Below, one piece after another: positions 2,557 through 37,540 of a stretch of DNA of 44,339 nt. The DNA lies in assembly GCA_038231275.1 (NCBI GenBank), contig JBBRLQ010000003.1, positions 1 through 44,339 of the forward strand, given 5' to 3'. A program made the position numbers and the translations under genes. The notes under the pieces were generated by a model. The model worked only from the letters and a program-made list of their open reading frames with translations, was not told the DNA's origin and searched no databases. Position 1 is the first letter of the stretch. Each line of letters opens with the position of its first letter. Origin of the DNA: Polyangiales bacterium. Its GTDB lineage: Bacteria; Myxococcota_A; Polyangia; Polyangiales; Polyangiaceae.

Positions 2557-2672
2557 TTCCCATGCATACCTTGAACGCGAGGTGGGGGGCGGCTCGCCGG
2601 TCTCCCACATGGTCCGCCCCGCGTCTTTCTTGCGACGGCGGCGGCCAATCCCGGCACAATGGCGGGCAGGCC

Positions 2673-5198
2673 ATGGGAACCGCCATCGGGATCGATCTGG
2701 GCACGACGAACACGGTCGTCGCCGCCGTCCGCGACGGACGAGCCGTGACGCTCGAGGACGAGCAAGGTCGCCGCCTCATCCCGTCGGTCGTGTCGTTCCA
2801 CCCCAACGGGGGGATCCTGGTCGGTCAACCTGCCAAGGAGCGCCGCTACAACGACGCCACGAACACGATCTACTCGGTGAAGCGCCTCATCGGTCGCCCC
2901 TGGAAGTCGCCGGAGGTGCAGGAGTCGTTGGTTCGTTTTCCCTTCGAGCTGCGCGAGGGGCCGAAGCAGTCGGTCATGGCCCTCGCGCGCGGCGAGGAGT
3001 ACGCGCTCCCCGAGATCAGCGCGTTCGTGCTTCGGCGCGCGAAGCAAATCGCAGAGGCGCGACTCGGCGAGACGGTCGACCGCGCCGTCATCACCGTGCC
3101 CGCGAACTTCAACGATCTGCAGCGCGCCGCCACCAAGGTCGCCGGACGGCTCGCCGGGCTCGAGGTGATGCGGATCCTGAACGAGCCGACCGCGGCGGCG
3201 CTGGCGTACGGCCAGTCGATCGCGCAGTCGGAGCGCATCGCCATCTACGATCTCGGCGGCGGCACGTTCGACATCACGCTCCTCGATCTGTCGGGCAGCG
3301 TCTTCGAAGTTCTCGCGACCGCCGGCGACACGGCGCTCGGCGGGGACGACATCGACGTCCTCGTCGCGGATCGAATCGCCGCACAATTCAGGGAGATCCA
3401 TCGCTTCGACGCGCGCTCGAGCCCGGAGGCGTTCGGCCGCCTCCGCCTCCTCGCCGAGGATCTCAAGATTCGCCTCTCGACCGAGGAGGAGGTCGCCGTC
3501 AACGTGACCGACCTCGCGTTCGGCGAGGGTGGCGCGGCGCTGTCGATCCGGTTCGTCATGAACCGCGCGCAGCTCGAGCACCTCGCCAAGCCGCTCATCG
3601 ACAAGACGATCGAGGTGACCCGCTTCGCGATCGACACCATCGGGCAGCGGCTCGAGGGCTTCGATCGCGTCATCCTCGTCGGCGGCTCGACGCGGATGCC
3701 GCTCGCCGCGCGCGCCGTCGAGGCCTATTTCGGCAAGCCTCCGTACTTGCGGGTGAACCCTGACGAGGTGGTGGCGCTCGGCGCGGCGATCCAAGCGTAC
3801 TCGCTGGAGGGCTCGAAGAAGACCACCACGGCGGTGGCGATGGACGCGCCGCGTCCTCGCATGGCGACGCTGATGGGCGTCAGCGAAACGGAGATCACCG
3901 GCGTCACCCAGGTCACGCAGATTACGGGCGTCACGCAGGTCACCCAGGTCACCCAGGTCACGCAGACCGGCATCACGTCGACGACGATGAGCGGCGGACC
4001 GCCATCGATCACGCGCTCGTCGCCGAGCATCTTGAAGGGCTCGGTCACCCAGATGGGGGCGCCGCCGCCCTTGCCGCTGCGCTCGAAGCCACCGCCGAAG
4101 TCGACGTCGGTGTCGGCGTCGACGACCCTCGAGGACGACGCGTTCGCGGGCTTCGAGAGCATGCCACGCGGCCCCGCCACGAGGCCCGACGCAGCGCCGG
4201 GCAACGAGGGATTCCAGCTCGACGAGCCAGGCGCAGGCGACGAGCGCGCCGCGGCGTTCAAGCAGCGTCAGCCGGAGCTCGACGAGATCACGTTCAGCAA
4301 GCGCTCGCCGTCGCTGGTGGGCGCGGACGCCGCGAAGACCGGCTCCAAGCCGCCGCTACCGCCAAAGGCGCAAGGGCGCCCCGCGCCGCCCGCTCCGCCG
4401 CGTTACGACAAAGAAGATCCGTCAATGTCGTTCAACGTGCCGGACGTTCCCATCATGGAGGACGAGCCCAGCGTCGCTCGCGCGCCCGCGCCGCCCGCGC
4501 CGCCGCAGCGCATCGTGCCGCCGCCGAAGCCGCCCGCGCCGCCCGAGGATCGCTCCATCCAGTCGTTCACGATGCCGCTCGGCAACCAACCGCCGCCGCC
4601 GCCCGAGGAAATGCACATCCCTCCGCCGGTGCCGCAGCCTCCGCCGTCGACGACGCTCCCGCTGCGCGCGAGCCCTCCCAACGCGCAGATGCGCTCGGCC
4701 GATCCGCCGCCGTGGGACGCTCCGTCGATCGCGGGCGTCGTGATGGCGGCGGACGTCCGCGAGGGCATCCAGACCACGGTTACACCGCTGCTCATCGACG
4801 TGACGCCGCTCAGCTTGGGGGTCGAGACGGTAGGCGGCTACTGCGACGTGCTGATCCCCGCCAACTCACCGGTGCCCTGCGACAGGACGCGAACGTTCCT
4901 CACCACGAGCGACGGCCAGACGCTCGTGTGCGTGAACGTGTCGCAAGGGGAGGGGCGGCGCTTCGGCGAGAACACGTTCCTCGGCCAGCTCGAGCTGTCG
5001 GGCCTCGAGCCCAAGCCGCGCGGGGAGCTCGCGATCGCAGTGACCTTCGAGATCGACGCCGACGGCATCTTGAACGTGCGCGCCAAGGAGGTGGCCAGCG
5101 GGCGCGAGCGCCAGGCCCGGATGCGCTTGCTCGGCGCGACCGCCACCGAGGACATGTCGGCCATGCTGGCGCGGCAAGCGCGCCACGAGGTACACTGA
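2673..5198 (+). CDS. Atypical Hsp70/DnaK-family ATPase: NBD, a ~320-aa proline-rich insertion, then SBD-beta; no alpha-helical lid
   Basis: ATG at 2673 gives MGTAIGIDLGTTNTVVAAV (phosphate-1 motif). DLGGGTFDITLLD (phosphate-2) and ILVGGSTRMP (adenosine motif) are present. NPDEVVALGAAIQAY marks the NBD end. A P/S/T/A-rich insert follows (~3805-4775). Then come the conserved linker and SBD-beta: TPLLIDVTPLSLGVETVGG ... VTFEIDADGILNVRAKEVASGRE. The protein stops ~27 aa later. Confidence 0.85.
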   Translation: MGTAIGIDLGTTNTVVAAVRDGRAVTLEDEQGRRLIPSVVSFHPNGGILVGQPAKERRYNDATNTIYSVKRLIGRPWKSPEVQESLVRFPFELREGPKQSVMALARGEEYALPEISAFVLRRAKQIAEARLGETVDRAVITVPANFNDLQRAATKVAGRLAGLEVMRILNEPTAAALAYGQSIAQSERIAIYDLGGGTFDITLLDLSGSVFEVLATAGDTALGGDDIDVLVADRIAAQFREIHRFDARSSPEAFGRLRLLAEDLKIRLSTEEEVAVNVTDLAFGEGGAALSIRFVMNRAQLEHLAKPLIDKTIEVTRFAIDTIGQRLEGFDRVILVGGSTRMPLAARAVEAYFGKPPYLRVNPDEVVALGAAIQAYSLEGSKKTTTAVAMDAPRPRMATLMGVSETEITGVTQVTQITGVTQVTQVTQVTQTGITSTTMSGGPPSITRSSPSILKGSVTQMGAPPPLPLRSKPPPKSTSVSASTTLEDDAFAGFESMPRGPATRPDAAPGNEGFQLDEPGAGDERAAAFKQRQPELDEITFSKRSPSLVGADAAKTGSKPPLPPKAQGRPAPPAPPRYDKEDPSMSFNVPDVPIMEDEPSVARAPAPPAPPQRIVPPPKPPAPPEDRSIQSFTMPLGNQPPPPPEEMHIPPPVPQPPPSTTLPLRASPPNAQMRSADPPPWDAPSIAGVVMAADVREGIQTTVTPLLIDVTPLSLGVETVGGYCDVLIPANSPVPCDRTRTFLTTSDGQTLVCVNVSQGEGRRFGENTFLGQLELSGLEPKPRGELAIAVTFEIDADGILNVRAKEVASGRERQARMRLLGATATEDMSAMLARQARHEVH
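3894..3965 (+). repeat. Coding 9-nt tandem repeat (GTCAC[C/G]CAG)n, ~8 units, giving (VTQ)n/ITG inside the Hsp70 insertion
   Basis: Direct read: atcaccggc gtcacccag gtcacgcag attacgggc gtcacgcag gtcacccag gtcacccag gtcacgcag. Protein: ITGVTQVTQITGVTQVTQVTQVTQ. Confidence 0.9.
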
Positions 5199-5204: not shown

Positions 5205-5729
5205 ATGCCGGCGGCGTCGACCTTCATGGCGTGGGCAGAGTCGCTCCCCACGCTCAGCTACTACGCGATCCTGCGCGTCGCGCAGAACGCGTCGCAGGCC
5301 CAAGTGAAGGCGGCCTTCCACTCGTTCGCGCTGCGCGCGCACCCCGATCGCTACGTCGACCACGAGCCGGAGGTAGCCCGCTCCGCGGCGGAGGTCTTCA
5401 AGCGCGGCGTCGAGGCGTACAACATCCTGTCGAAGCCCGACCTGCGCGACAAGTACGACGTCGGCCTCGCCAAGGGAAAGCTGCGGCTCGATCCCGACGC
5501 GCTCCCGAGCGTGCCGCCGCCCCCGCCGAGGGAGAAGACGATCGAAGAGAGCGCGCAGACGCCGAAGGGCAAGCAGATCGCCGCGAAGGCCGATCGCTTC
5601 ATCGCCATCGGCCGGCTCGAGGACGCGCGCATCCAGATCGTCAACGCTACCCTCGAGGAGCCGTTCAACGACGAGCTGAAGGAGCGGCTGGCGGCGCTGT
5701 ACCAGGCGCTGTGCTCCGAGCCTCTCTGA
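5205..5729 (+). CDS. J-domain co-chaperone (DnaJ-like, 174 aa)
   Basis: SYYAILRVAQNASQAQVKAAFHSFALRAHPDRYVD...AEVFKRGVEAYNILSKPDLRDKYD is a canonical J-domain with the HPD motif. The gene starts 7 nt after the Hsp70 stop. Confidence 0.8.
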   Translation: MPAASTFMAWAESLPTLSYYAILRVAQNASQAQVKAAFHSFALRAHPDRYVDHEPEVARSAAEVFKRGVEAYNILSKPDLRDKYDVGLAKGKLRLDPDALPSVPPPPPREKTIEESAQTPKGKQIAAKADRFIAIGRLEDARIQIVNATLEEPFNDELKERLAALYQALCSEPL

Positions 5730-5759: not shown

Positions 5760-6365
5760 ATGAGCCTCGCGCACATCAAGCGGTGCCTCGACATCGCGGA
5801 GAAGGACATCGCCGCGGCCGTCGAGACGCGCGAGGCGTGCAAGGTGCTGCTCGATCACATCTCCAAGATTGCCGCCGCGAACCAGGGGGCGCCGAAGCTC
5901 TTGCTCGTGCTCGCCCGGATGGCGACGACCGCGTGTGACTGGGTCGACGGCGAGCTGCGCATCGAGATGGTCGGCGACGGCGAGGTCACGGTCGTCGAGC
6001 TGATGAGCGAGCTCGGCGGGGGGATGCGCGAGCGCGTGCTCCCGTCCTTCTCGCTTAACGTGCCGCTCGCCGAGTTCACGCGCGCGGTCGAGCGCGTGCC
6101 GCACATGATCGAGCCGCTCACCACCAAGGTCGCGTCGCCGCGGCGGGTGGTGTTCACCGCGAGCCAGGACGTTCGGAAGAGCACCGTTCCGCCGCCGCCC
6201 GTCGAGATCGGCAAGAGCTCGCTCTACGAGGCGCCCAGCGGCTCGCGCCTGCCGTCGGCCGTGCCGGCCGCGCCGCCTGCGCCGACCCCCGCAGCCGGTC
6301 GTCCAGCGGGACCGGGCAAGCCTCCGCCGCTCCCCCCGCGCGCGTCGCCGAAGCCGAAGACCTAG
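5760..6365 (+). CDS. Hypothetical protein (201 aa) with a C-terminal proline-rich tail
   Basis: Third same-strand ORF of the Hsp70/J cluster with high GC3. The tail ...GRPAGPGKPPPLPPRASPKPKT echoes the KPPLPPKA / APPPLPLRSKPPPK motifs in the Hsp70 insertion. Confidence 0.5.
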   Translation: MSLAHIKRCLDIAEKDIAAAVETREACKVLLDHISKIAAANQGAPKLLLVLARMATTACDWVDGELRIEMVGDGEVTVVELMSELGGGMRERVLPSFSLNVPLAEFTRAVERVPHMIEPLTTKVASPRRVVFTASQDVRKSTVPPPPVEIGKSSLYEAPSGSRLPSAVPAAPPAPTPAAGRPAGPGKPPPLPPRASPKPKT

Positions 6366-6402: not shown

Positions 6403-9400
6403 TCAGCCGTCGCGTTCGAGCTGCTCGAGGATCGCGCGCGCGCTGCCCAGCGTCGGATCATCGTCGATCGCGCGTTTGAGGAGCATGATCGCACGCTTCT
6501 TGTCGCCCTGCTGACGCGCGATCTCGCCGAGGTATTGGTACGCGAGCGCCTTGGACATCGGCGCGGCGGTCTTCAGCATCGTGATCGCGCGGAGCGCGCG
6601 CGTCGCGACCTCGTGCTGGCCGACGACCATCGCCACCGTGGCGAGCTCGCTCGCGACGACGCCGTTCTGGCTATCCATGTCGAGCGCGACCGAGAGGTGC
6701 GTGATCTCCTGCTGCGGATCTCCCTGCGCGCGCGCGATCTTCGCGAGGCGGTGGTAGAGCGGCGACTGTTCGCGGGACCGCCGCCCCTTGTTCTGCGCGA
6801 TGACCCCCATCACGAGCTCGCCGGCCTGCGGCGCGCGCCCGCTCAGGATGTACGCGTCGGCGAGGCGCACCAGGCAGTCGAGATCGGCGGGGCGGAGGGC
6901 GTGGGCCTCCTCGAGCGGCTGCACGGCCTCCTCGGGGTTGCCGCCTTGCTGAAGGAGAAGCGAGCCGGCGCGCATCAAGTGCGTGAAGCGGCCGGCCACC
7001 TCGAGCGACCCCTTGGCGTCCTCGAGGCTCATCTCGGCGAGCTCCTTGAACGCGGCGGTCTGCTCGTAGAGGAGCTCGAGGCGGCGGCGCAGCGCGGCGT
7101 TCGTCGGCGCGGTCATGCGCGCGCGTTCGAGGCCGCCTCGCGCGTCGCCGATCCTTCCCGCGCGCTCGCACGCGTCGGCGAGGCGGAGGGCGGTGTCCAC
7201 GACGTCGTCCCCTTCTTCGAGCGCGACGAGGCGCCGATACACGGCGCTCGCCGCGTCCCAGTGCTGCGCGACCTCCTCCAGCTGCGCGAGCGCGCGGAGG
7301 GCGTCCTTGTCCTTTCCGTCGTTCTTGAGGAGATCGCCGAGGAGCGAGCGCGCCCCGTCGTGATCGCCGATCTGAGGGAGCAGCTCGCCGAGGCGCAGCC
7401 GAACGGTGCGCCAGCGCGCGATGTCACCGGTCGCGGCGGCGCGCATTCCGATGCGCTCGAGGTACGACGCGAGGTCACGGATGTACGAGCTCCCGCCGGC
7501 GGTGTAGGCGAGCTCCATGTCGTCGAGCGCGCCGGCGTCGTCGCCAAGCTTGCTCCGCATGCCCGCGCGCTGGGCGAGGAGCGACGGAAGCGCGGGGTGG
7601 TTCGCGTCGCCTAGCCCGTCGATGGCGATGCTGAGCTCGTCGGAGGCGCCGCTGAAATCGCCGGCGGCCGTGAGCATCTGCACGAGCTCGCCGAGGAGCA
7701 CCTGATCGTCAGGTGCGATCGCGCGCGCCTCGCGGAGGATCCGCGCGCCGCTGACCGCGTCCTTTAGCTCGTTCTGGTAGATCGACGCGGCCTCTGCGAA
7801 GCGCGCGACCTTGTCGTCGGGATCGGTGCGCCCGCGCGCGTCGGTGACCGCCAGCTCGGCGAGCTTGGGCCACGAGCTCTTCTCGCGGTACGTCGACTCG
7901 AGGCGATCGCGGATCTGCGCGCTCTGTGGGCACGCTTTGAAGCCGAGCTCCAGCGCTCGCATCGCGCCCTCTTCGTCCCACGCGTCGGCGCGGAGCTGCG
8001 CGAGCTCCAGCGCGAGCTTCTCGGCCGCGGGGCCGGTCTCCAGCGCCAAGAGACGCTCGAGGATGTCCGCGCGATCTCCCGCCTCGCCTTCCACCGAGTG
8101 CAGGCGCGCCAGCGCCTCGAGCAGCGGCCGGTTCTGCGCGTCCCAGTCGAGGCCGACGTAGTAGACGTTCTTCGCCTCGATGCGATCGCGCTGCTCCAGC
8201 AGTGAGCCGAGCCGCACCGAGAGGGACGCGACGCTCGGGGCGTCGCTGCGGTCCTTCGCGCCCTCGAGCTGGCGCGCGAGGAGATCGGCGAGCTCGTCGG
8301 ATCGCCCGAGGCGCTCGAGGATGCTTGCGAGCTGGATCGCCGGCTCGAGCTGGCTCGGGTCCTCGTCGACGATCTCGCGAAGCGCGGGGATGGCCTCCTC
8401 GTCGCTCATTCCGAGCTCGCCCATCATCGCCTTCACCCGTTCGACACGGAGGCGCGAGCGCTCGGCAGGATCCTCCACGAGCTCGACGACGCGGCCCACG
8501 AGCTCGACGAGCTTCTGCGCGGCGCCCATCCGGCGGTAGACCGACAAGAGCGGGTCCCACGCCTCGCGGTCGGCCGGCTCGTTCTCGTGGAGCGCCTCGT
8601 ACGTCGCGGCGGCGAGCGGCAGGTCTCCGAGCTCCGCGGCGGCGAGGCGCGCGACGTCGAATCGAAGCTTGCGCGCCTCGTCGGGTTCGGCCAGCTCGGC
8701 GGCCGCGCGCTTGTGCTCGACCGCTTCGGTCAGATCACCCGCGGCCGCCCGCAGCTCCGACAGGCGCGACAACGCCCACGCGCGCGAGGCTTGATCCTCG
8801 TTGTCGCTCGCGAGGAGCTCGCGCAGGAGCGCCTCGGCCTGCGCGGCGTCCCCGAGCTTCTCGGCGGTCGCCACCGCCTCACGCAGCGCGTCCTCGGCGC
8901 CTCCGCTGGTCTGCCGCCATCTGCGGGCGAGGGCGTCAACGAGCGCGCGCTCGAAACCGGGCTCGCGTCCCACCTTCTCGTAGAGGGCGATCACCTGCGC
9001 GCTGTCCGGGTGAGCCTGCGCGGCGTCGCGGAGGATGCCCTCGGCGCGCGCCCAGTCCGCCTCACGATCGAGCGCCGCGACGAGGAGCTCGCACCCCTCC
9101 TCCGGCTTGCTCTTGCCCTTGAGGCGCAGGCTCGCGAGACGGAACAGAGGATCGCTGGTGAGCCGTCCTTCCCGCTCCTCGAGCTGCACACGCGCGGCGA
9201 GGATCCGCGCCTGGCTCTTTTCGTCACCGACGCGCTCGTAGATGCGATCGAGGGCGAAGAGCACGTCGGCCGAGCGCGTCCCGTGACGCTCCGCGCGCTC
9301 GTAGATCGCGGCGGCGCGCTTGTCGTCTTTCAGATCCTCTTCGACGACCGCGCCCATGCGGAGGAGCAGATCGCACGCGAGCTTCTGGCTTTTCGCCTCC

Positions 9401-12400
9401 TCGGCGCCGCCCGCCAGCTCGGCGAGGTGGTCGACGTATTTCAGCACGGCGCCCTGCTGCCGCGCGAGGCCGAGCGCGGCTTCGTGCGCGGCCGCCGAAT
9501 CGGGCGCGAGCTTCACGGCGCGGAGGCGTGCGGCGAGCGCGTCGTCGCGCCGACCCAGGTGCGTCTCCAGCACGCTCGCGAGCTCGCCCAGCCCTTCGGC
9601 GGCGGTGGCCGGCGGGATGCTCGCGCGCGCGAGGCGCCCTTCGAGCGAGCGCACCAGCGTCTGGTAATCGCCGCGCGCGCGCAATGCCGCCTCGAGCCGG
9701 CGGGCCTCGACCTCGCTGCCGATGGCGGTCTCGAGCGCGCTCTCGAGGATCTCCTTCGCGCGCTCGTTCTCCCCCTGACGCTCGGCGATGAACGAAAGCT
9801 CGAGGAGCACCTCGCTGCGGACGACGGGAGGATCCGGCCTGGTGCCCTCTTGTCGTCGCAGCACGGCGAGGAGGGCGCGGTAGGAGCGCTCGGCGCGCTC
9901 CAGCTGACCGTCGTCGCGCGCCAGCTCCGCGAGGGCGCGGAGGATCTCAGGGTTGGCCGGATCGATGCGCGTCGCCTGATCCAGCTCGACCAGCGCCCGC
10001 GCGCGATCGCCGACCGCGAGATCGAGGCGCGCCAGGTGGTAGTGGACCGGCGCGCGCTCCTTCGGGCGTCGCCCCGCGAAGCCGTCGATGAGCTTTCGCA
10101 GGAGATCGCGGGCTTCGTCGAAGCGCTGCGCGGCGCCGAGCGCGTCCCCGAGGGCAAGGCGGATCGCGCGATCCTCCGGCTCGAGGTCCGACGCTTGCTC
10201 GAGCAGTGGGATCGCCGCCTGCGGCTCGTCGCCGCGCATCTGGAGATCCGCGGCCTCACGGAGCCGCGCGAGGCGAGTCGCCTTGTCGGGCGCGTGGGCC
10301 GCGCCATCGGTGAGGAGCGCGGCGAGCGCCTTCCAGTCCGATTTGGCGCGGTAGACCTCGGCGAGTCGTGCGCGCACGCCCTCCGCGTCGGGATCGGCGG
10401 CGATCGCCTCCTCGAGGCGCGCGCGCGCCTGGTCGTCGTTGCCAGCCGACACGAGCGCCGCGGAGAGCCGCAGCGTGACCTCGGCGCGCGCCTCCGGTTT
10501 GCACGCCGTGTGGAGCTGCTCGAGGTAGCGCGCGGCGTCTTCGAAACTCTTCTTCTGGGTGGAGAGGCGCGCGAGCGCGTCGAGCGACTCGGGGCGCGCG
10601 TCGATCGCGATGACCTTCTGATGGTGGGCGATCGCGGCGTCGACGTCCTTCAGGTTCTCCTCGGCGACGCGCGCAGCCCGTGCCCATAGGTCGGCGGCGG
10701 ACGCCTGCTCCTCCGCCTTCTCGGCGCGCGTGGCCTGCGTCGCCAAGAGCTCCGCGAGCTCGTTGTGCCGCCGCTCGCGCTCGAGCACCGCCACCAGCTC
10801 CTGCACGGTCGCGGTGTGACGCGGATCCTCGTCGAGGCTCTCGCGGAGGATGCGAATGCACCCCTCGAGATCCCCGAGCAGCGTGAGGAGCGGCGCGGCC
10901 TCCAGGCGCAGATCGACGCGCTTCGAAGGGCTCTTGGCGGCGGCGATTTGCTTGCGCTTGAGAGCGAGAAGCTCGTCCTTCTGGCCCTTCGCCTCGTAGA
11001 GCTCGACGAGGTGATGGACCGCGCGAACGTCCTCGGCGTCCTCGGTGAAGAGCGCCATGTAGAGCGCCACCGCGCGATCGTGATCGCCGAGGCGCTCCGC
11101 CGCGATGCGCGCCGCGTCGTGACGCATTCCGCGCGACGTCTGGAGCCGGAACGGCAGGCGCGCCGTGTCGACCAGCAGCTCCACGATCCGCTCGGCGTCA
11201 CCCTCTTCGTCGTGAATTCGTACGAGCTCGCGCAGCGCCCACTCGACGGCGCCGCTCGGCGCGCCGGGGCTGCCGAGGGTCACCGGGCCGTCGGGATCGG
11301 AGCCAATCCAGCGCTCGGTCCCGAGCTTCAGCATCCGCTCGAGGATCGACTTGGCGAGAGAGCGATCGCCCACCGAGCTCGTCGTGATCTCGGCGGCCTC
11401 GCGGAGCAGATCGAGATCGCCGCCGGTCGCCGTCGACAGGCGCAGGAGGCTCTCGACGAGGGGGCGCCCCTTGCTGCGACGCTGGAGTTGCGCGAGCTCG
11501 AAGAGGAGATCGGCGTTCGCGGCGTCGTACGCGAGGGCGCGCACGAAGGCCGCCTCCGCCGCGTCCGGATCGCCGCGACGGTCGCGGTGCCATAGCGCCA
11601 CGCGCCCTTCGGCGTCGCGCGCGATCGCTGCGGGAAGGTCGGGCCTCTCGCCCACCGCCGCTGCGAACGCCGCCGTCGCTGCGTCCCATGCGCCGGGCGT
11701 GGTCGCGGCTTCTTCCACGGCTTCGACGAGGAGCGGCTCGAGGCGATCGGTGGCGCGCGACGACTCGAGGACGACCTTGGCCGCCGCGTCCCACCGCATC
11801 ACGCGCGCCGCGACCCGCACGGTCGCGCGCGCCGCGTCGAGATCGCGCGGCGCGTCTTGCGCCACGCGCTGGTACGCGACCAGGGCGGCGCGCGGATCGT
11901 CGAGCTTCGTCTCCAGGACCTCGGCCATGCGGAACCGCAGACCGGGCAGCCACGCCTCGACCGTCGAATGGACCTCGCGCGCCTCGATCGCCTCGCGCTG
12001 GGCTTCGGCGAGCGATCGCCACTGGCGGGTCGCGTCGGCCAGACGATGGAGCTGCGCCTCGACGTCGCGGGTCTGCGGGGCGACCAGGAACGCCCGGCGC
12101 GTCGCGGCGAACGCCCCCTCGAGGTCTCCTGCGCGTTCCTCGCTGATCTTCGCCGCCTCGAGCAGGACGACGACCTTGTCACCGTCGTCGACGGAGGTGC
12201 CGAGCCGGTGCTCGGTCAGCTCGAGGATGCGCGCCCACTCGTCGCACACACGATAGGCCTCGAGGAGCACCTCGACCGCCGCCGCGCGGTGCTCGGCGCG
12301 CGGCAGGAGCGCGTGCAGTCCGGCGCGGGCCCCCGCCTCGCGCGCGTCGGCGTGCAGCGCCGCGCCGTAGCTGTCAATCGCGTCCTTTGCGCCGTCGAGG

Positions 12401-15400
12401 TGCTCGCGCTGCACGTCGCCGAGCTCGCGGAGGAGCTGGGCGCGCGCGTCGGCCTCGGTCGTGCGATCGGCGGCGCGATCGAGGAGCTCCGCGAGCTCGC
12501 CCCACTTGCGCGCGCCCTTCAGGAGTCCGATCAGCGCGCGCGTGCTCTCGTCGGACTCGCCGAACTCGCTCTCGACCTCGCGCCAGGCGACGATGGCCTC
12601 ATCGATCTCGCCGAGCTCGCGGCTCTGGATGGTCGCGACGCGCACGCGGTCGGCGCGCGCATCCCCGCCGGGCAGTTGCGCGCTCGCCCGCTTCTTCAGG
12701 ATGTCGATGAGACGGCGCCAACGACCGTCCTTGCCGAGCAGCTCCACGAGCCCGTTCAGTGCTGCCTCGTCGGTCGGGAAGAGCTCGAGGAGCGACTCCC
12801 ACGCCCACACAGCGCGATCGGTCTCCGCCAGATCGGTCGCCAGGCGCGCCGCGGTGGACAGGACGCGACGGCGCCCCTCCGCCTCCGGCTCCAGGAGCGA
12901 GAGGCGCTCGAGGACGTCGAGCCGCTCGCGCACGCGACCGGCGTCCGCCAGGAGCGGCTCGATGCGGCGGCACGCGTGGTAGAGCGGCGTCTCCGCGACC
13001 GGCGACACGAGGAGGATGCGGAAAAATAGGTCGATCGCGCGATCGGCTTCGTGCAAGCGATCGGCGTGGACGACGCCCGCCTGCATCAACAGATCGACCC
13101 GCAGCGCGTCGTCGGTGCAATCGTCGGCGGCCGCGACGAGGACCTCGGCGAGCCGATCCTCGCGGTGCACGCGGGCGGCGATCTCGGCGAGCTTGTCGCG
13201 GTGCTCGGCCACGTCGGGCTCGAGGAGCACCAGCGCGACGTAGTGCTCCATCGCCTGCGGCTCGTTCGAGAGCTGCTGGTAGAGGGTCGCGATCTGCTGG
13301 TGACGTCGAATGCGCTCTTTGGCGTTCTTCACCGCCTCGAGCTCGACCTCCAGGATCCGCACGAGATCGGCGTCGCGCCCCTGCTCGACGTACCTCTCCT
13401 TGAGGAGGGCCGCGGCGCGCTGTCGGACGAGGGTGCGCTTCTGCCCGCCCACGGGGGGGAGCGAGTCGCGCCGCGAGACGGGCGGCCGGTCGCTGTCGGC
13501 GCTCGTCACCGGCGGCGCGACGACCGACTCGCGCAGCTCGGCGTGCGGCGGCGCGGCGGCGAGGACCCGCTCGAGGAGACGCGAAACGTCGAGCGGCGCG
13601 GCGTCGCTCTGCGTGTCGCGGGCCAGCATGTCCTCGACCACGATGAGCGCGTTGGTGGCGTCGCCCAGCTCGTCGAGCCATAGCGCCGCGATCCGCGCGC
13701 GCGACTCTTGCGAGGTCTTGTGCGGCATGCGCCCGAGCTGTCCCTGGAGGAGCTGGATCAGCTCGCGATGGCACCCGTGGCGCTCGTAGAGCCGCTCGAG
13801 CGACGCCGAGAGGCGCGCGTTGCCGGGCTTCAGCGCGAGGAGCTGCTCCAAATACCCGATGGCGCGCTTCGAGTGGTTGGCGAAATCCTTGGCGATCTGC
13901 GCGGCGTCTTCGAGCAGCTCCACCTTCTTCGCCTCGGTCGCGGCGACGAGCGCGCGATCGTAGAGCGCGAAGAGATCGTCCCAGCGCTCGGCCGCATCGA
14001 AGAGGAGCTTCAAACGATCGAAGGCCCACGCCTCGGTGGGATCGATCTCGAGGATGCGCTCGAGGATGCTGACGACGCGATCGGAGTCTTCGAACCACTC
14101 CTCGTAGAACGCGACGGCGCGCTTGCCGAGCTCGAGCGCCTCGTCTTTTTCCATCGGCGTCGCGAGCGCCTCGTGGAAGAGCTTGGCGACGCCGTCCGGC
14201 TCCTTGCGCGCGCGGGCCAGGCCCTCGGCGCGATCCCACAGCGCCGCCACGCCCGGCATCTCCGCCGCCGCGCGAAGCACGGCCTCGTACGCCTCGGCGT
14301 CACGGCTCTGATTCTCGAGCAGGTCGAGGAGGCGCTCGAACCAGTCTTGGCGCCGCTCGACCGGCGCGGCGCGATCACCGAGGAGGCAATCGAGGATGCG
14401 AACGCGCACTGCGTCGTCGGCGACGTCGAACGTCTTCTCGAGCATCTGCGCGGCCGGCGCGCGTGTCTGCGGCATCGCCAGGAGCCGACTCGCGAGCGCC
14501 AGCGCGGCGTCGTCGTTTGGCGCGCTCTCGAGGACGCTCGCCACGGACGCCAGCGCCTCCACCAGGCGCTCGGTGCGATCGAGGAGGATGGTCGCGATCT
14601 CCAGATCGAGGCGCGCGCGCGCTTCGCCGTCCGAGCGATCGCGTCGGGCCACGAGCGCGTCGATGGCCCCCTGCACGTCACCCGTCGCCAGCGCGAGCCG
14701 CGATACTGCGCCGAGCGACTCCGCGTTCTCCGGGTCGATGCCGAGCACGCGCTTGTGGAGCTCCAGCGCCGCCGGCAGATCGTGCAGGCGCGCCTCTTCC
14801 GTCTCCGCCCACGCCGCGAGCGCGTGGAGGCGTTCGCCTTCGGCGGCGTGATCGACGCGCCATTTGCACAGCCAGCGTCGATCGTCCGCCGTCCCGCCGT
14901 CGGGCCTCGCCGCGAGCAGCCCCTCGAACGCCGCCACCGCCGCGCGCGTCCGCGCCTCGTCGAGCCCGCCGGCGCCCAGGACGTCACGGTAGGCGGCGGC
15001 CGCGCGCTCATGGTTCCCCGGATCGGCGGAGAGCACGCGCGCCTTTGCCATTCGAAGCTCGGAGTGCAGGGCCTCCGCGTCGGCGTCGCCTTCGGTCGCC
15101 GCGATCGCAGCGTCCACAGCGTGCTCGAGATCGGTCGCCGCCCCCGCCGCGCCGGCCAGCCGTTCGAACGCGGCGAGCACCTCCCGGTCGCGCGGATCCA
15201 ACGCGAACGCCTGCGCGGTCGCGGCGACGGCCCCCGTCACGTCCCCCAGGTGCTCGGCGCGGACGCGCGCGACGCGCATGAGGAGCGCCGCGCGACCCTC
15301 GGCAGGACCGCTCGCGAGGAGCACGCGGAACAGCGCCGGTAGCTCGCCGAAATCGCCGGCGCGCTCGCACACCTCCGCGAGCCTCTCGGAGGCCTCGAGA

Positions 15401-18400
15401 TCGTCCGGCAGGAGCGCGCGTACTTTGGTGTAGAGTGCACGCGTCGCCTCGTCGTCCGCCGCGGCGACCGCGATCCGTGCCGCGCGCCGATAGGTCTCGC
15501 CTCCCGCGAGCCGGTCCTCGCCCTTCTCGGTCTCCACCACCGCGAGCTTCTCGAGCCACGCGATCTGATCGCGCGGATCGGCCGCCTCGAGGGCGCGACG
15601 CGAAAGCACGCGCTTCTCGAGATCGGGATCGCCGAGCGCGACGGCCACGTGCTCCACGGTCTCCAGCTCGGCGGTTTCGGTCGCCGGGTCATCCAGGAGG
15701 ATCGCCGCCTGCGCCGCTGCGCGCGCCTCCTGGCCGTGCGCCGCCGAGAGCTCCGCCAGCTGCGCGCGCGTGCGCAGCGCCTCTTCCGGCGTGACGCGCG
15801 CGAGGTGGCCTTCGAGCAGCTCGCCGAGCTCGCCCCACGCGGCGCCCTCCGTGTAGAGATCGACGAGCGCGGCGTAGGCCTTGCGATCGTCGGGCTCGTT
15901 CGCCAGCGCGGCGCGGTACGCCTCGATCGCCGCGGCGGGATTGCCCAGCTCGCCGCGCTCCAGGACGCCGATCGAATGGAGAAGCTCGCGCTTGCGCTTG
16001 TCGTCGACGCCGCGATCGAGCGCCGCGCGGTAGAGCGCCACGCGCTCGCCGGGGCTGCCCTGATCCTTCAAGAGCTCGTCGACGCGGCCGAGGATGTCGT
16101 GGTTGGAAGGCTCGAACGCCAGCGCCCGCCGCAGCGCAGCCAGCGCGCCCGCCACGTCTCCGCACTCCGCCAGCGCTTCGCCTGCCACGCGCGCGAGCAG
16201 CACGAGCTCTGCCGAGTCGATCGCCCGATCGCCGAGCGCCTTTGCCAGGAGCGCCGCGCGCCGCTTCGGATCGATCCCTGCGTTCGCGAGGCGCGCCATC
16301 CGCTCGAGCCACGGTCCGAGCGCCGCGCCTGTGGTCACCGCCTCGGCGAGCCCCTTGCCGGCGAAGTCGATCGCGCGCGCAAGGTACGCGGGGCTCTCCT
16401 CGGCGACCTGCGTGGCCTCTTCGAGCGCGCCGAGGCGCTCGTCCGCGCTCGAAGACAGCTGCGCGCGCATCTCGAGCACGCGGAGGAGGCCCTGCGTGTT
16501 CGCTTCCGCGCGGTACACCGGCTCGAGCACGCTGGCCGCGACGAGGCGCTGGTCGCCCACCGAGAGCATCTTTTCGAGCGCCGCACGCGACGTCTTCTCG
16601 GTAGGGTCGGCAGTGAGCGCGCGCCTGAACGCGTCGATCGCGAGGTCCACCTCGCGCGTGCGCTGAAGCCGCACCAGCGCGAGGCGCGCGTAGATCGCGG
16701 CGCGCTCCGCCTCGGGCGCGAGCTGCGCGTCGGCGGCGAGCGTCCCTGCCAGATCCGGCCACGCCTTCTGCTGCTCGAGGAGCGGCATCCACTGCACGAA
16801 CGCCTCGCGCGACGCGCCGTATTTTTCGACGACCGCGCGCCACGCGTGGCTGGCTCGCTCGACGTCCTGCGTCTTGGTCGTCAGCACCTCCGCGGCGCGC
16901 ACACACAGCTCGCGCGCCTCGCGGGGGCTCTCTGCGTCTTTGCCGCGCTCTTCGAGCACGTACGCCAGATCGAGCCAGCTCCCCGCCGCCTCGTAAAGCG
17001 GCTCCAGGGCAGCGAGCGCCCGAGGACGCGACGCCGTGTCGACGAGCGCGCGCCACGCCGCGATGGCCCGCGGCGCGTCCTTCAGCACCCGGAACGCCAG
17101 CTCCGCGAGGCGCTCGTTCGCCATGCGACGGCGCTCGAGATCGGGGTCGAGCTGTCCGACCTTCTCGAGCACGTCGGCGAGCGCGCGGTGGTCCCCTTCG
17201 CCCTCGTAAATCTCCGCGAGCGCGCGCGCCGCCTTGAGCGTCGCCGTCGCGTCGACCGCCGCCGCCGCGAGCACGCTGATGAAGGTCGCCTTCGCCTTCT
17301 TCACGTCGCCGCCGATCCGGTAGAGCTCGCCCATCTCCGCGGTCAACCGCGCGCGCACCGCGCTCTCTCGCGCCGCGGTGCCCACGCGCTGGAGCGTTCG
17401 CGCGGCGTCCAGGATCTTTCCGATCTGCAGCGCGAGCGAGCCGTAGCGAAGTCGCACGTCGTCGTCCGACGGATCGAGCGCGATCGCCTGCTCGAACGCC
17501 TCGAACGCGCCTTCGAGATCGTCGATCCGATCTTGCTTCAAAATGCCGATGCGCTTCAGCACGGCCAGCCGCTTGGGCCCCCGCGTGTGCTCGAGCTCGA
17601 TCGCGAGGAACTTTGCCACGTCGCTCGGGAGCCCGGTCTGCTCGTTGGCGTCCGCGAGCGCCGACGCCGCGCGCGCCGCGAGGCCCTTCACGCCGAGGAG
17701 CTTCGATGCGACGCGCCGCGCCTCGTCGTGGCCGGGCTCCTTCGCGAGGATCGCCTCGATGTGCGGCATCGTCCGCTCGGGCTCGTGCAGCTGCCCGGCA
17801 TAGAGCTCGACGAGCCGCGCGCGCAGGCGCAGCTGCTCGTCCTCGGGGAGCGGCGGCTCGGTCGTCAGCGCCTGCTCGAGGAGGCGCGCAACGTCGCGGT
17901 GACGGTTCGCCTTCACGTACTTCGCCTCGAGCATCTCGCGCGCGCCGGAGTCGGCGGGGTCGAGCTTGAGGAGCTGCTGGTAGAGCTCGATCGCCTTCTC
18001 GTCGCCGCCGGTCGTCTTCTCGTAGATCTCCGCGGCGCGCTTCAGGAGCGCGATCTGCTCGGGCTTCGCGCGGTGCTGCGCGGCGCTGGCGTAGAGATCG
18101 GCGACCTTCTTGGGATCACCGACCTTGGTGAGCAGCACCTCGAGCCGATCGAACGCCGCCGCGTGGGCCGGCAGCGCCGCGAGCGATCGTTCGAGGTAGC
18201 TCGTGGCGCCGAAGTCGTCGCCGAGCACGTCGCCAAAGAACGTCGCCGCGCGGTACAAGAACTCGGCGAGCACCGCCGGCGTCATCGTCTTCAGGCGCTT
18301 GCCTTGCGCCACCGACTCGTACGCGAACGCGAGCTCGCTCATGCGCTCGTCGCGCTGCGCGGCGCGATGCAGCTCCTCCCACGTGTCCGGTCGAAGCTGC

Positions 18401-18522
18401 CCGCGACTGAGCGCGAGCAGCATGGTGTCGAGGATCGACTCCTCGCCTTCGAGCTTCTTCTCGAAATCGAACGTCGCCTGGGGAGGGGGCATGGAGCCCC
18501 GTTGACGAGGAGGATTCTGCAT
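6403..18522 (-). CDS. Giant TPR-like alpha-solenoid repeat protein (4039 aa, single uninterrupted ORF)
   Basis: A 12,120-nt open frame on the - strand. Translation is Ala/Leu/Glu/Arg/Asp-rich but contains K, Y, W, F, Q, N, H, M throughout, with TPR-like periodicity (e.g. ...AIELYQQLLKLDPADSGAREMLEAKYVKANRHRDVARLLEQAL...). All overlapping + strand ORFs are R/L/G/V-only antisense artefacts. No catalytic motif was recognised. Confidence 0.8.
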   Translation of the reverse strand: MQNPPRQRGSMPPPQATFDFEKKLEGEESILDTMLLALSRGQLRPDTWEELHRAAQRDERMSELAFAYESVAQGKRLKTMTPAVLAEFLYRAATFFGDVLGDDFGATSYLERSLAALPAHAAAFDRLEVLLTKVGDPKKVADLYASAAQHRAKPEQIALLKRAAEIYEKTTGGDEKAIELYQQLLKLDPADSGAREMLEAKYVKANRHRDVARLLEQALTTEPPLPEDEQLRLRARLVELYAGQLHEPERTMPHIEAILAKEPGHDEARRVASKLLGVKGLAARAASALADANEQTGLPSDVAKFLAIELEHTRGPKRLAVLKRIGILKQDRIDDLEGAFEAFEQAIALDPSDDDVRLRYGSLALQIGKILDAARTLQRVGTAARESAVRARLTAEMGELYRIGGDVKKAKATFISVLAAAAVDATATLKAARALAEIYEGEGDHRALADVLEKVGQLDPDLERRRMANERLAELAFRVLKDAPRAIAAWRALVDTASRPRALAALEPLYEAAGSWLDLAYVLEERGKDAESPREARELCVRAAEVLTTKTQDVERASHAWRAVVEKYGASREAFVQWMPLLEQQKAWPDLAGTLAADAQLAPEAERAAIYARLALVRLQRTREVDLAIDAFRRALTADPTEKTSRAALEKMLSVGDQRLVAASVLEPVYRAEANTQGLLRVLEMRAQLSSSADERLGALEEATQVAEESPAYLARAIDFAGKGLAEAVTTGAALGPWLERMARLANAGIDPKRRAALLAKALGDRAIDSAELVLLARVAGEALAECGDVAGALAALRRALAFEPSNHDILGRVDELLKDQGSPGERVALYRAALDRGVDDKRKRELLHSIGVLERGELGNPAAAIEAYRAALANEPDDRKAYAALVDLYTEGAAWGELGELLEGHLARVTPEEALRTRAQLAELSAAHGQEARAAAQAAILLDDPATETAELETVEHVAVALGDPDLEKRVLSRRALEAADPRDQIAWLEKLAVVETEKGEDRLAGGETYRRAARIAVAAADDEATRALYTKVRALLPDDLEASERLAEVCERAGDFGELPALFRVLLASGPAEGRAALLMRVARVRAEHLGDVTGAVAATAQAFALDPRDREVLAAFERLAGAAGAATDLEHAVDAAIAATEGDADAEALHSELRMAKARVLSADPGNHERAAAAYRDVLGAGGLDEARTRAAVAAFEGLLAARPDGGTADDRRWLCKWRVDHAAEGERLHALAAWAETEEARLHDLPAALELHKRVLGIDPENAESLGAVSRLALATGDVQGAIDALVARRDRSDGEARARLDLEIATILLDRTERLVEALASVASVLESAPNDDAALALASRLLAMPQTRAPAAQMLEKTFDVADDAVRVRILDCLLGDRAAPVERRQDWFERLLDLLENQSRDAEAYEAVLRAAAEMPGVAALWDRAEGLARARKEPDGVAKLFHEALATPMEKDEALELGKRAVAFYEEWFEDSDRVVSILERILEIDPTEAWAFDRLKLLFDAAERWDDLFALYDRALVAATEAKKVELLEDAAQIAKDFANHSKRAIGYLEQLLALKPGNARLSASLERLYERHGCHRELIQLLQGQLGRMPHKTSQESRARIAALWLDELGDATNALIVVEDMLARDTQSDAAPLDVSRLLERVLAAAPPHAELRESVVAPPVTSADSDRPPVSRRDSLPPVGGQKRTLVRQRAAALLKERYVEQGRDADLVRILEVELEAVKNAKERIRRHQQIATLYQQLSNEPQAMEHYVALVLLEPDVAEHRDKLAEIAARVHREDRLAEVLVAAADDCTDDALRVDLLMQAGVVHADRLHEADRAIDLFFRILLVSPVAETPLYHACRRIEPLLADAGRVRERLDVLERLSLLEPEAEGRRRVLSTAARLATDLAETDRAVWAWESLLELFPTDEAALNGLVELLGKDGRWRRLIDILKKRASAQLPGGDARADRVRVATIQSRELGEIDEAIVAWREVESEFGESDESTRALIGLLKGARKWGELAELLDRAADRTTEADARAQLLRELGDVQREHLDGAKDAIDSYGAALHADAREAGARAGLHALLPRAEHRAAAVEVLLEAYRVCDEWARILELTEHRLGTSVDDGDKVVVLLEAAKISEERAGDLEGAFAATRRAFLVAPQTRDVEAQLHRLADATRQWRSLAEAQREAIEAREVHSTVEAWLPGLRFRMAEVLETKLDDPRAALVAYQRVAQDAPRDLDAARATVRVAARVMRWDAAAKVVLESSRATDRLEPLLVEAVEEAATTPGAWDAATAAFAAAVGERPDLPAAIARDAEGRVALWHRDRRGDPDAAEAAFVRALAYDAANADLLFELAQLQRRSKGRPLVESLLRLSTATGGDLDLLREAAEITTSSVGDRSLAKSILERMLKLGTERWIGSDPDGPVTLGSPGAPSGAVEWALRELVRIHDEEGDAERIVELLVDTARLPFRLQTSRGMRHDAARIAAERLGDHDRAVALYMALFTEDAEDVRAVHHLVELYEAKGQKDELLALKRKQIAAAKSPSKRVDLRLEAAPLLTLLGDLEGCIRILRESLDEDPRHTATVQELVAVLERERRHNELAELLATQATRAEKAEEQASAADLWARAARVAEENLKDVDAAIAHHQKVIAIDARPESLDALARLSTQKKSFEDAARYLEQLHTACKPEARAEVTLRLSAALVSAGNDDQARARLEEAIAADPDAEGVRARLAEVYRAKSDWKALAALLTDGAAHAPDKATRLARLREAADLQMRGDEPQAAIPLLEQASDLEPEDRAIRLALGDALGAAQRFDEARDLLRKLIDGFAGRRPKERAPVHYHLARLDLAVGDRARALVELDQATRIDPANPEILRALAELARDDGQLERAERSYRALLAVLRRQEGTRPDPPVVRSEVLLELSFIAERQGENERAKEILESALETAIGSEVEARRLEAALRARGDYQTLVRSLEGRLARASIPPATAAEGLGELASVLETHLGRRDDALAARLRAVKLAPDSAAAHEAALGLARQQGAVLKYVDHLAELAGGAEEAKSQKLACDLLLRMGAVVEEDLKDDKRAAAIYERAERHGTRSADVLFALDRIYERVGDEKSQARILAARVQLEEREGRLTSDPLFRLASLRLKGKSKPEEGCELLVAALDREADWARAEGILRDAAQAHPDSAQVIALYEKVGREPGFERALVDALARRWRQTSGGAEDALREAVATAEKLGDAAQAEALLRELLASDNEDQASRAWALSRLSELRAAAGDLTEAVEHKRAAAELAEPDEARKLRFDVARLAAAELGDLPLAAATYEALHENEPADREAWDPLLSVYRRMGAAQKLVELVGRVVELVEDPAERSRLRVERVKAMMGELGMSDEEAIPALREIVDEDPSQLEPAIQLASILERLGRSDELADLLARQLEGAKDRSDAPSVASLSVRLGSLLEQRDRIEAKNVYYVGLDWDAQNRPLLEALARLHSVEGEAGDRADILERLLALETGPAAEKLALELAQLRADAWDEEGAMRALELGFKACPQSAQIRDRLESTYREKSSWPKLAELAVTDARGRTDPDDKVARFAEAASIYQNELKDAVSGARILREARAIAPDDQVLLGELVQMLTAAGDFSGASDELSIAIDGLGDANHPALPSLLAQRAGMRSKLGDDAGALDDMELAYTAGGSSYIRDLASYLERIGMRAAATGDIARWRTVRLRLGELLPQIGDHDGARSLLGDLLKNDGKDKDALRALAQLEEVAQHWDAASAVYRRLVALEEGDDVVDTALRLADACERAGRIGDARGGLERARMTAPTNAALRRRLELLYEQTAAFKELAEMSLEDAKGSLEVAGRFTHLMRAGSLLLQQGGNPEEAVQPLEEAHALRPADLDCLVRLADAYILSGRAPQAGELVMGVIAQNKGRRSREQSPLYHRLAKIARAQGDPQQEITHLSVALDMDSQNGVVASELATVAMVVGQHEVATRALRAITMLKTAAPMSKALAYQYLGEIARQQGDKKRAIMLLKRAIDDDPTLGSARAILEQLERDG

Positions 18523-18613: not shown

Positions 18614-18913
18614 TTACTTGTTGGTCGCCCCGTGGTAGACGCGCGTGATGTCGGCCTCGTCGAGGAAGCCGAGGATGTGGCCCGCGTCATCGACGACCAG
18701 AAGCTCGCGGACGTTGTTGGCGAGGGTGAACGCGCCGACGGATGACGTCGAAGATGAGATCGGCGCGGTGCGCGGGAGAGTCGCGGCGCGTGGGCACCTG
18801 CGCGGCGTAGAGAGAGCGATGGCGCAGCGCCACGAACGCGATTCCTTCGGCGAGCATGAGCGGGACGAGCAGCTCGTAGCTCCTGTGGAAGGCGTCGATG
18901 ATCGCGTCGGAGC
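18614..18913 (-). pseudogene. Remnant of a ClC-family chloride channel gene (last TM helix plus CBS-domain tail), frameshifted and 5'-truncated
   Basis: Frame A has ...DAIIDAFHRSYELLVPLMLAEGIAFVALRHRSLYAAQV, resembling ClC helix R (EcClC: [32 protein letters not shown]). Frame B ends ...VRELLVVDDAGHILGFLDEADITRVYHGATNK*, a typical CBS-domain C-terminus. The two halves are in different frames. The upstream ~1.2 kb expected for a ClC gene is absent, replaced by ctaB. Confidence 0.4.
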
Positions 18914-19091
18914 CGCGAGCTTGATCGAGACGATGCCGCCGAGGAGGGCGCCGACGAGAGGCGCGCGCAGGCCCGGCGAGCTCGGGGGAGATGGAGGGAC
19001 GACAGGAGGCTTTTCCTGGCTCATCCCCGCGGCCTGCGGTGCCCGTGCTTGACGGCGCCCGCTCCATTCCTTATACGCCTGCGGCTCCCCA

Positions 19092-20003
19092 ATGACACAG
19101 CTTGCCGACGGATTGGCCCCCGCAAAGATCGCGCAGCGCGTCCGTGTGGCGGATCTCATCGCCCTGACCAAGCCGCGAATCACGCTCATGGTCGTCATCA
19201 CGACGCTCGGCGGTCTCTTCCTCGCGCGTCGCGCCGAGGGGGCGGTCTTCACCGCGTGGATCGTGGGATGGGCCGTGCTCGGGACGGCGCTCGTCGTCGC
19301 CGGCGCGAACGCGCTCAACATGTACATCGAGCGCGAGATCGACGGGAAGATGGCGCGGACGCAGAATCGTCCGCTCCCCGCCGGCCGCCTGAACGCGCGC
19401 GTGGCGCTCTGGTTCGGCGTGATCCTCTCGGCGGTATCGGTGCCCATCCTCGCGATCGGCGTGAACCCGCTCACCGCCTTGCTCGCGGTGCTCGCGAACG
19501 TGAGCTACGTCCTCGCGTACACACCGATGAAGCAGCGATCGCACCACGCGCTCCTCGTCGGCGCGGTGCCTGGCGCGATCCCGCCGCTGCTCGGTTGGAC
19601 GGCGGCGACTGGGCGGATCGACGCGGCCGGCGTCGTGCTCTTCGCGGTGTTGTTCCTCTGGCAGGTGCCGCATTTCCTGGCCATCACGCTCTTCCGCCGC
19701 GAAGACTACGCGCGCGCGGGCCTCGTGGTGATGCCGAACGTGACCGGGACGCGGGACGTGAAGCACGCCATCGTGCGGTATTCGCTGGCGCTGGTGGGGG
19801 CGAGCCTGCTCCTCGTCCCGCTGCGCATCGCGCACGTCGGCTACTTCGTGGTGGCGGCGGCGCTGGGCGTGGCCTTCTTCGCGTTGGGCTGCTTCGGATT
19901 GCGGGAGGACGCGGGCCGCAAGTGGGCGCGCTCGCTGTTCGCGGCGTCGATCGTTTACCTGCTCCTCCTCTTCATCGCGGTCGCTGTCGACCCGCTCGCG
20001 TAG
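19092..20003 (+). CDS. ctaB: Protoheme IX farnesyltransferase (heme O synthase)
   Basis: UbiA-fold membrane prenyltransferase, 303 aa: ...ALNMYIEREIDGKMARTQNRPLPAGRL... and ...WQVPHFLAITLFRREDYARAG... are CtaB/CyoE hallmarks. Confidence 0.9.
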   Translation: MTQLADGLAPAKIAQRVRVADLIALTKPRITLMVVITTLGGLFLARRAEGAVFTAWIVGWAVLGTALVVAGANALNMYIEREIDGKMARTQNRPLPAGRLNARVALWFGVILSAVSVPILAIGVNPLTALLAVLANVSYVLAYTPMKQRSHHALLVGAVPGAIPPLLGWTAATGRIDAAGVVLFAVLFLWQVPHFLAITLFRREDYARAGLVVMPNVTGTRDVKHAIVRYSLALVGASLLLVPLRIAHVGYFVVAAALGVAFFALGCFGLREDAGRKWARSLFAASIVYLLLLFIAVAVDPLA

Positions 20004-37287: not shown

Positions 37288-37540
37288 GGGCCTCACCGTA
37301 CCGCCCCTTTGGCGGCGCGCGAGCGCGATTTAACGCCGCGCTGTGACCCTCGCCAACGTCGCGCAACATTTTCGCGAAATCCCATGCGCACTTGCCACCG
37401 ATAACGGGGGTTGTACGAGCGGGATGGCTTCCTCTATAAAGCCCCCGCTCGCCCCCGCATTTCCTCGCGAGCAATCGCCCCTTGCCCGCGCCCCGCCCTT
37501 CTGGGGAGGGGCCGCGCGTGCAAACGGAAAGCAACCGAGA

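Follow-up and report, generated by a model that had tools for sequence, protein, structure and literature searches.

The 44,339-nt stretch of Polyangiales DNA analysed here (contig JBBRLQ010000003.1 of assembly GCA_038231275.1, positions 1 to 44,339; the whole stretch is referred to as the window) carries an uninterrupted 12,120-nt open reading frame (ORF) which encodes a protein of 4039 residues. We read it, with a probability of about 0.7, as an intact gene for an acidic cytoplasmic protein built of tetratricopeptide repeat (TPR) hairpins, which belongs to a family of the myxobacterial class Polyangia, is a distant cousin of the gliding protein GltI and serves as a multivalent docking scaffold. 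A search of the literature on this family in Polyangia gave nothing specific. An earlier note on this DNA, which had described the product as a giant TPR-like solenoid rare in bacteria, proved partly right: it overstated the rarity and recognised neither the internal architecture nor the kinship with the known protein GltI.

With stop codons expected at 1.7% of positions from the local base composition, the chance of 4039 stop-free codons is about 1e-30, in agreement with the earlier view that the frame is far beyond chance. ORF length is a weak coding criterion at 70–72% GC. The window also contains an antisense ORF of 999 aa, so long spurious frames do arise at high GC, and in the homologous locus of a Sorangium (L057, 3812–14902, minus strand) an antisense ORF reaches 3696 aa, which shows that very long wrong-strand frames are possible in a repeat gene rich in GC at third codon positions. 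These spurious frames, together with the fragmentation of part of the homologues, speak for a pseudogene, for an artefact of assembly or for an open frame without coding function that high GC has produced. Against this stands the codon-position GC of the giant ORF (0.80/0.47/0.90), which is of the coding type and matches the real genes of the window. The closest relative, from a metagenome-assembled genome (MAG) of an uncultured Myxococcales bacterium (L003), aligns over 4039 of 4039 codons without gaps or indels, and the ratio of nonsynonymous to synonymous substitution rates (dN/dS) is 0.09–0.18 in each 500-codon block, the N-terminal third included. The N-terminal sequence MQxPP..R is kept among relatives and thus supports the annotated ATG start. 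Furthermore, 49 orthologues are intact, three of them from cultured strains, two of which have complete genomes, and the broken copies sit in long-read contigs, where they change frame yet stay collinear. Because codon-position GC, dN/dS, the conserved N-terminus and the numerous intact orthologues agree, we regard the 12-kb frame as a real, intact gene; as far as sequence analysis goes, an artefactual origin is refuted and its probability negligible. Promoter and terminator scans at both ends of the gene found nothing.

The deduced protein is strongly acidic (net charge −153), with an expected mass of about 430 kDa. Neither a transmembrane segment nor a signal peptide was found in it (maximal 19-residue hydropathy 1.48, hydrophilic N-terminus), from which a cytoplasmic location is predicted, and its sequence contains no Walker A, CxxC or EEVD motif. 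Pfam searches revealed only TPR-type families above their thresholds, namely TPR_19 with 97.6 bits (cut-off 25), TPR_11 with 78.6, TPR_17 with 63.7, TPR_8 with 52.9, TPR_1 with 49.1, and TPR_2 and TPR_14 with 45.6 bits each, plus ARM_TT21_5th (40 bits), a repeat family of TT21 (IFT139). The absence of P-loop, kinase, peptidase and signal peptide that the earlier note had listed was thereby borne out. Candidate roles as a peptidase or kinase were rejected, as no matching domain exists in the protein, and so was a STAND/NLR-type NTPase with a TPR sensor, since the sequence lacks a Walker A motif and matches no NTPase family (NB-ARC/NACHT) in Pfam or NCBIfam. All matches to the named TPR families of NCBIfam (PrsT, MamA, PilW, LapB, YbgF) lay far below the curated cut-offs; the best of them, PrsT with 133.7 (cut-off 312.2), MamA with 133.1 (200) and PilW with 71.7 (154), reflect generic TPR similarity. 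The secreted and lipoprotein TPR types (PrsT, PilW, LapB) are additionally disfavoured by the missing signal peptide.

The fold was modelled with AlphaFold2, using family alignments, for 2096 residues (52% of the protein). Residues 3040–4039 gave a mean predicted local distance difference test score (pLDDT) of 90.8 with 54 helices, and residues 1405–2500 a pLDDT of 88.5 with 59 helices. Both models consist entirely of helical hairpins except for loops at residues 1666–1693 and 2407–2423, and the unmodelled remainder is tiled by TPR Pfam and repeat matches, which upholds the description as an all-helical TPR-like solenoid. Autocorrelation of the sequence peaks at lags of 17 residues (one helix), 34–38 residues (hairpin) and 71–72 residues (double hairpin). 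Profile matches and stacked hairpins both place the protein in the TPR superfamily (Pfam clan TPR), and extrapolation of the modelled helix density suggests roughly 110 hairpins for the whole protein. A Foldseek comparison of the C-terminal 1000 residues with the PDB revealed as best matches IFT139/TTC21B, Ski3/TTC37, Ctr9, Prp6, Naa15, TTC7 and OGT. Of the eukaryotic TPR scaffolds among them, IFT139/TTC21B, Ski3/TTC37, Ctr9, Naa15 and OGT (E 3e-16 to 1e-8) are all passive superhelical platforms that gather the subunits of a complex. They differ in being three to four times shorter, in an identity of 11–17% and in template modelling scores of 0.12–0.24, as expected for flexible solenoids, and the resemblance is not taken to mean homology other than the shared TPR fold. 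A sequence search of the PDB returned only designed consensus TPRs and OGT (E 1e-7 to 1e-4).

Relatives of the protein were sought with an alignment of its middle part in one genome per species of bacteria and archaea; 131 were found, of which 80 loci were fetched for analysis. All loci of this family with a lineage label belong to Polyangia. Two intact forms were recognised. The long form, a single ORF of 4009–4242 aa, occurs in 29 other loci and was collinear with the window protein in all three cases checked by tblastn, namely Labilithrix luteola DSM 27648 (4124 aa, 54% identity across residues 4–4039; complement strand of CP012333.1, at about 4,479,279–4,491,653), Sorangium cellulosum So ceGT47 (4185 aa) and Chondromyces apiculatus (4047 aa). 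The short form, an ORF of 2480–2850 aa, was found in 20 loci from Nannocystis, Kofleriaceae, Sandaracinaceae and unnamed Polyangia. Fragmented homologues were encountered in metagenome contigs, where the homologous 12 kb remain collinear with frame switches, the pattern expected from indel errors; such copies were confined to long-read contigs. The earlier note had named homologues everywhere split into ordinary-size TPR genes as the pattern that speaks against a single giant gene, and this pattern was not seen in the loci analysed. An apparent split into genes of about 1000 aa in segment searches was likewise dismissed as an artefact, as these matches were limited to about 1.75 times the query length and the contigs were short. 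In two MAGs, a pair of loci of this family was observed (L025 and L036; L053 and L056), and one of these, L036, carries a shorter ORF of 1806 aa adjoining an FHA/sigma-54 activator gene; such double loci may be paralogues within the family or mixed strains in the bins.

The comparison of both forms revealed an internal architecture (Table 1). A profile hidden Markov model (HMM) of the short forms of about 2600 aa aligns end to end with the C-terminal two thirds of the window protein (HMM positions 29–2608 to residues 1405–4036, score 2600), and in tblastn the query residues from about 1410 to 4035 map to the ORFs of 2480–2850 aa. The same profile matches a second time at residues 26–728 (HMM 31–731, E 4e-72), followed by further matches at residues 754–1005, 1043–1197 and 1220–1368. 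These matches, which extend from residue 26 to residue 1368, show that the first approximately 1400 residues arose long ago when the beginning of the core was duplicated within the protein. This duplication is visible only with the short-form profile; BLAST of the protein against itself detected no internal repeat at E 1e-3. In an alignment of 50 sequences, the N-terminal region is occupied in about 60%. The ancestral form was a protein of about 2600 aa, corresponding to residues 1405–4036 here, which gained about 1400 N-terminal residues by duplication of the first approximately 930 core positions in a lineage comprising Labilithrix, Sorangium, Chondromyces and the source organism of the window. 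Conservation within the core is even, with 34–62% identity to the window protein per 100 aa among 50 full-length orthologues and no single hot spot. Thus, the statement that only TPR hairpins are present from end to end holds for the fold, but the protein is not featureless, as it consists of a core plus duplication and contains two short disordered loops.

A wider search for the superfamily was performed in 1.84 billion representative proteins with a TPR fragment from Myxococcaceae as query. At E≤1e-30 it yielded 2403 relatives; of the 150 that scored best, the majority were 3300–4230 aa long, and more than 100 clusters at 50% identity consist of proteins of this size. The earlier note's view that a cytosolic scaffold of such dimensions is rare in bacteria is therefore not supported; in Myxococcota, proteins of this size and type are common. 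Clustering by collinear similarity resolved a group of about 3750 aa designated G1 (112 representatives), a family of about 1680–1690 aa and two small groups of 4076–4175 aa. The family of the window protein clusters apart and holds none of the 150 representatives. Relatives were also observed outside Myxococcota, as the planctomycete Candidatus Uabimicrobium has one of 2914 aa (WP_372365294.1), and one metagenomic relative is 7720 aa long (proteins P0276 and P0317).

The one protein of this kind for which experimental work is described in the literature is GltI (AgmK, MXAN_4863, YP_633022) of Myxococcus xanthus, a cytosolic scaffold protein of 3822 aa with TPRs throughout and no signal peptide (PMC4508894; PMC3169522, Table S3; PMC11761067). 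Gliding requires it, its localisation at focal adhesions depends on MglA, and a role in joining the Agl-Glt machinery to AglZ and MglA was proposed (PMC4508894). A predicted structure suggests a rail of about 1100 Å on which the GltG FHA domain would have six docking sites and the GltJ GYF domain two (PMC11761067). The GltI gene adjoins gltJ in the gltD-J cluster, and orthologues of 4074–4104 aa in Anaeromyxobacter and 4089 aa in Stigmatella are on record (PMC3169522, Table S3). As the names of 20 giant relatives read just 'tetratricopeptide repeat protein', GltI-type proteins were recognised by a gltJ-like neighbour. One gene from each of the two groups of 4076–4175 aa (P0214, P0312) is directly followed by a gene encoding Zn_ribbon_4 and GYF_2 domains, the domain make-up of GltJ (PMC11761067), and both groups were therefore taken as GltI-type. 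The Myxococcaceae fragment P0073, initially considered a GltI fragment, belongs instead to the family of about 1680–1690 aa.

These GltI-type proxies are collinear with each other and with G1 (768–2768 bits; P0214 against the G1 protein P0193, for instance, gives 1152 bits over 3496 aa), whereas their similarity to the window protein amounts to 157–178 bits at 22–24% identity and is out of register. G1 and the window family likewise share at most 341 bits, out of register. An HMM of 330 aa built from the tandem super-repeats of gltJ-linked proteins detected six to eight tandem copies of 330–410 bits each in GltI-type proteins and eight to nine well-kept tandem copies of 200–275 bits in G1 proteins. 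In the window protein there is one good copy (Table 1), and the others are diverged, with weaker full copies at residues 109–427, 490–810, 877–1183 and 1230–1497 (60–105 bits) and half-units elsewhere (15–72 bits). The copies in the window family are old and strongly diverged, each conserved in its own position. Because the HMM matches GltI-type, G1 and window proteins alike, the whole superfamily must have grown by amplification of one module of about 160/330 aa. G1 genes (e.g. MCD6497835.1, MBU0553488.1) resemble the window gene in carrying this module and in standing alone among housekeeping genes without an operon partner. Fragments labelled Sandaracinaceae and Polyangiaceae fall in G1, and Sandaracinaceae MAGs hold the window family as well; several giant families therefore occur within Polyangia. 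In one Illumina contig (L083, 9940–9972), a G1 giant gene is split into 2680 and 1168 aa by a single in-frame TAG inside an otherwise normal TPR motif (..YERALEL*PDSAF..). The TAG could represent a sequencing error, a recent pseudogene or read-through, and the two GltI homologues of Sorangium So ce56, sce2920 (1774 aa) and sce2921 (2081 aa), whose genes belong to the glt cluster and neighbour that of the FHA protein sce2918 (PMC3169522, Table S3), may be a similar case.

Two specific roles were weighed for the window protein. It might be a relocated GltI/AgmK orthologue that acts in Agl-Glt gliding through docking of the GltG FHA and GltJ GYF domains. Its size (4039 aa against about 3800–4130 aa), its predicted cytoplasmic location and its continuous TPR make-up without signal peptide or membrane segment fit GltI (PMC4508894), it shares the 330-aa module, and Glt-type genes do exist in Polyangia such as Sorangium and Haliangium (PMC3169522, Table S3). 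However, So ce56 has its separate GltI homologues within the glt cluster, whereas the window orthologue of a Sorangium (L057) lies among GAF/PAS, beta-helix and HU genes and has no glt neighbours, nor does the Chondromyces orthologue. The neighbours of the window gene itself are an Hsp70 gene, a DnaJ gene, a 201-aa ORF and a UbiA gene; no gene for a Zn-ribbon/GYF or FHA-TonB protein was found in the window and none recurs among 92 flanking genes of 30-odd loci. Together with the out-of-register similarity to gltJ-linked proteins, which are collinear among themselves and with G1, and with the occurrence of more than one giant family per lineage, this makes an orthologue of GltI very improbable. 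As the gene never stands beside gltJ and the protein clusters apart from gltJ-linked proteins, we consider it a distant paralogue of GltI, on the evidence of sequence and gene order.

The other possibility is that the giant protein works with the Hsp70, the J-protein and the 201-aa ORF product encoded downstream, either as a recruiting platform or as a very large client. TPR domains are classic partners of Hsp70 and Hsp90 in eukaryotes. The earlier note had pointed to the convergent arrangement, which was confirmed, the stop codon of the 201-aa ORF lying 37 nt from that of the giant gene; the link it hinted at turned out to be weak. Among 52 related loci, each with at least 3 kb of downstream sequence, the DnaJ+Hsp70 pair follows in 18, which represent distinct MAG species at 44–90% identity, and the 201-aa ORF is found at the same position in nine of these 18. 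The pair is convergent in all of them, therefore not co-transcribed with the giant gene, at a distance of 29–3291 nt and sometimes with other genes in between. Neither L. luteola, Sorangium and Chondromyces nor any short-form locus among the 52 has the pair. In two loci (L020, L022), glyQ comes directly after the giant gene and the Hsp70 module is missing, which points to a gene order shared by descent and not to a functional unit. The Hsp70 itself consists of a nucleotide-binding domain, an insert of about 330 aa rich in Pro, Thr and Gln with VTQ(V/I)TG-like repeats, and a substrate-binding beta domain, and it has no helical lid. It ends in ...ARQARHEVH and not in EEVD, the acidic terminus by which a Hop/CHIP-type carboxylate clamp of three TPRs binds its Hsp70 partner. 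A functional unit of these proteins is accordingly unlikely, and the link looks more like inherited gene order of one sub-clade. No family was found in more than three loci in a Pfam survey of the 92 genes flanking the 30-odd more distant orthologues, and the giant gene is thus effectively stand-alone.

Table 1. Position of the giant TPR gene, its parts and further genes in the window
Feature	Position	Strand	Basis or remark
Giant TPR solenoid gene, predicted cytoplasmic product	6403..18522	minus	Complete; ATG start, 4039 codons + stop; ORF list, translation
Conserved core, aa 1405-4039	6403..14310	minus	Corresponds to the full-length product of Nannocystis, Kofleriaceae, Sandaracinaceae and other Polyangia
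N-terminal extension, aa 1-1404	14311..18522	minus	Only in the long (~4000 aa) form; short-form HMM matches
Best-kept ~330-aa super-repeat copy, aa 1901-2230	11833..12822	minus	170 bits over HMM 2-327, GltI-type HMM
Disordered Pro/Ser-rich loop, aa 1666-1693	13444..13527	minus	pLDDT <50 (model residues 262-289); P/S/G-rich; low family occupancy and conservation
Second non-helical loop, aa 2407-2423	11254..11304	minus	Coil, model residues 1003-1019, pLDDT 54-60; G/P/S-rich aa 2395-2430
Modelled C-terminal 1000 aa (3040-4039)	6406..9405	minus	AlphaFold2, 54 helices in hairpins
201-aa ORF	5760..6365	plus, convergent	No Pfam family; Pro-rich tail; stop 37 nt from stop of giant gene
Atypical Hsp70, 878 aa	2562-5198	plus, convergent	Pfam HSP70 1.7e-156
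Small J-domain protein	5205-5729	plus, convergent	Pfam DnaJ 1e-14
UbiA-family prenyltransferase gene	19092..20003	plus, divergent, upstream of giant gene	Pfam UbiA 2.8e-54
Short ORF	18614-19474	minus	Just upstream of giant gene; weak CBS-like motif at end (E 0.005)
glyQ (glycyl-tRNA synthetase alpha) frame	3-1457	minus	Pfam E 1e-137; open ~180 codons upstream of conserved domain
HEAT-repeat protein, 694 aa	22184-24268	minus	HEAT_2 E 1.5e-40; second helical-repeat protein, 3.7 kb from giant gene
Multihaem cytochrome c	37343-38167	plus	Gene row like alternative complex III operon
Molybdopterin/4Fe-4S subunit	38155-41307	plus	Same row
NrfD-type membrane subunit	41307-42761	plus	Same row
ActD	42676-43344	plus	Pfam E 6e-65; same row

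The UbiA gene occupies the same upstream position in 14 related loci, L. luteola included. A gltJ-linked GltI-type gene, too, has a UbiA-family gene upstream (L088, 1719–2594, minus strand), at a distance of about 6.4 kb and with a Che cluster in between, which may be a coincidence. The short ORF upstream of the giant gene may be the remnant of a CLC/CBS-type gene; one related locus (L002) has a complete CLC channel/CBS gene on the upstream side of the homologue, a few genes away. The true start of glyQ is probably internal to its frame, and the gene row at 37343–43344 on the plus strand resembles an alternative complex III operon.

The proposed function of the giant protein is what we infer from the structure models and from the analogy with GltI. 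The earlier note had considered function not deducible from motifs; by this analogy a role is partly inferable (PMC4508894, PMC11761067), and the assembly platform which the note had suggested is a reasonable reading. Like GltI, the protein would form a long multivalent docking rail in the cytoplasm, which would keep several copies of a partner or several machines in a fixed arrangement. As every position of the 2600-aa core is individually conserved and its repeats are not homogenised, numerous different binding sites, each specific to its position, are probably spread along the rail. Several points weigh against this interpretation. The scaffold role derives solely from fold and analogy, the comparison with GltI was made with proxies chosen by size and gltJ adjacency and not with the M. 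xanthus protein itself, and no neighbour is conserved family-wide that would point to a partner. A small non-TPR insert in the unmodelled 48% of the protein is unlikely in view of the Pfam and repeat tiling. One can speculate further that the core is a new cytoplasmic structural element independent of the Agl-Glt motor, for example a rail or ruler with a fixed length of about 0.1 micrometre and dozens of docking sites for cell-envelope or polarity machinery, which in one sub-lineage would be assembled or remodelled by the lid-less Hsp70/J pair; we regard this extension of the docking scaffold as doubtful.

By itself, the finding opens no new class of biology. For annotation, it provides a defined family and architecture in place of labels such as 'Exonuclease SbcC' or 'hypothetical protein', and a warning that broken gene calls in long-read metagenomes stem from frameshift errors. 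No other part of the Myxococcus gliding machinery is as poorly understood as GltI, which structure prediction has been unable to place, apart from the suggestion that it brings several motors together. Our results show GltI as a single branch within a very large set of myxococcotal giant TPR proteins, among them a family found throughout Polyangia whose 2600-aa core is non-repetitive. This set offers comparative material to identify which parts of the 330-aa module every family keeps, and to contrast a homogenised multi-copy rail, as in GltI and G1, with a putative rail conserved position by position, as in the family described here.

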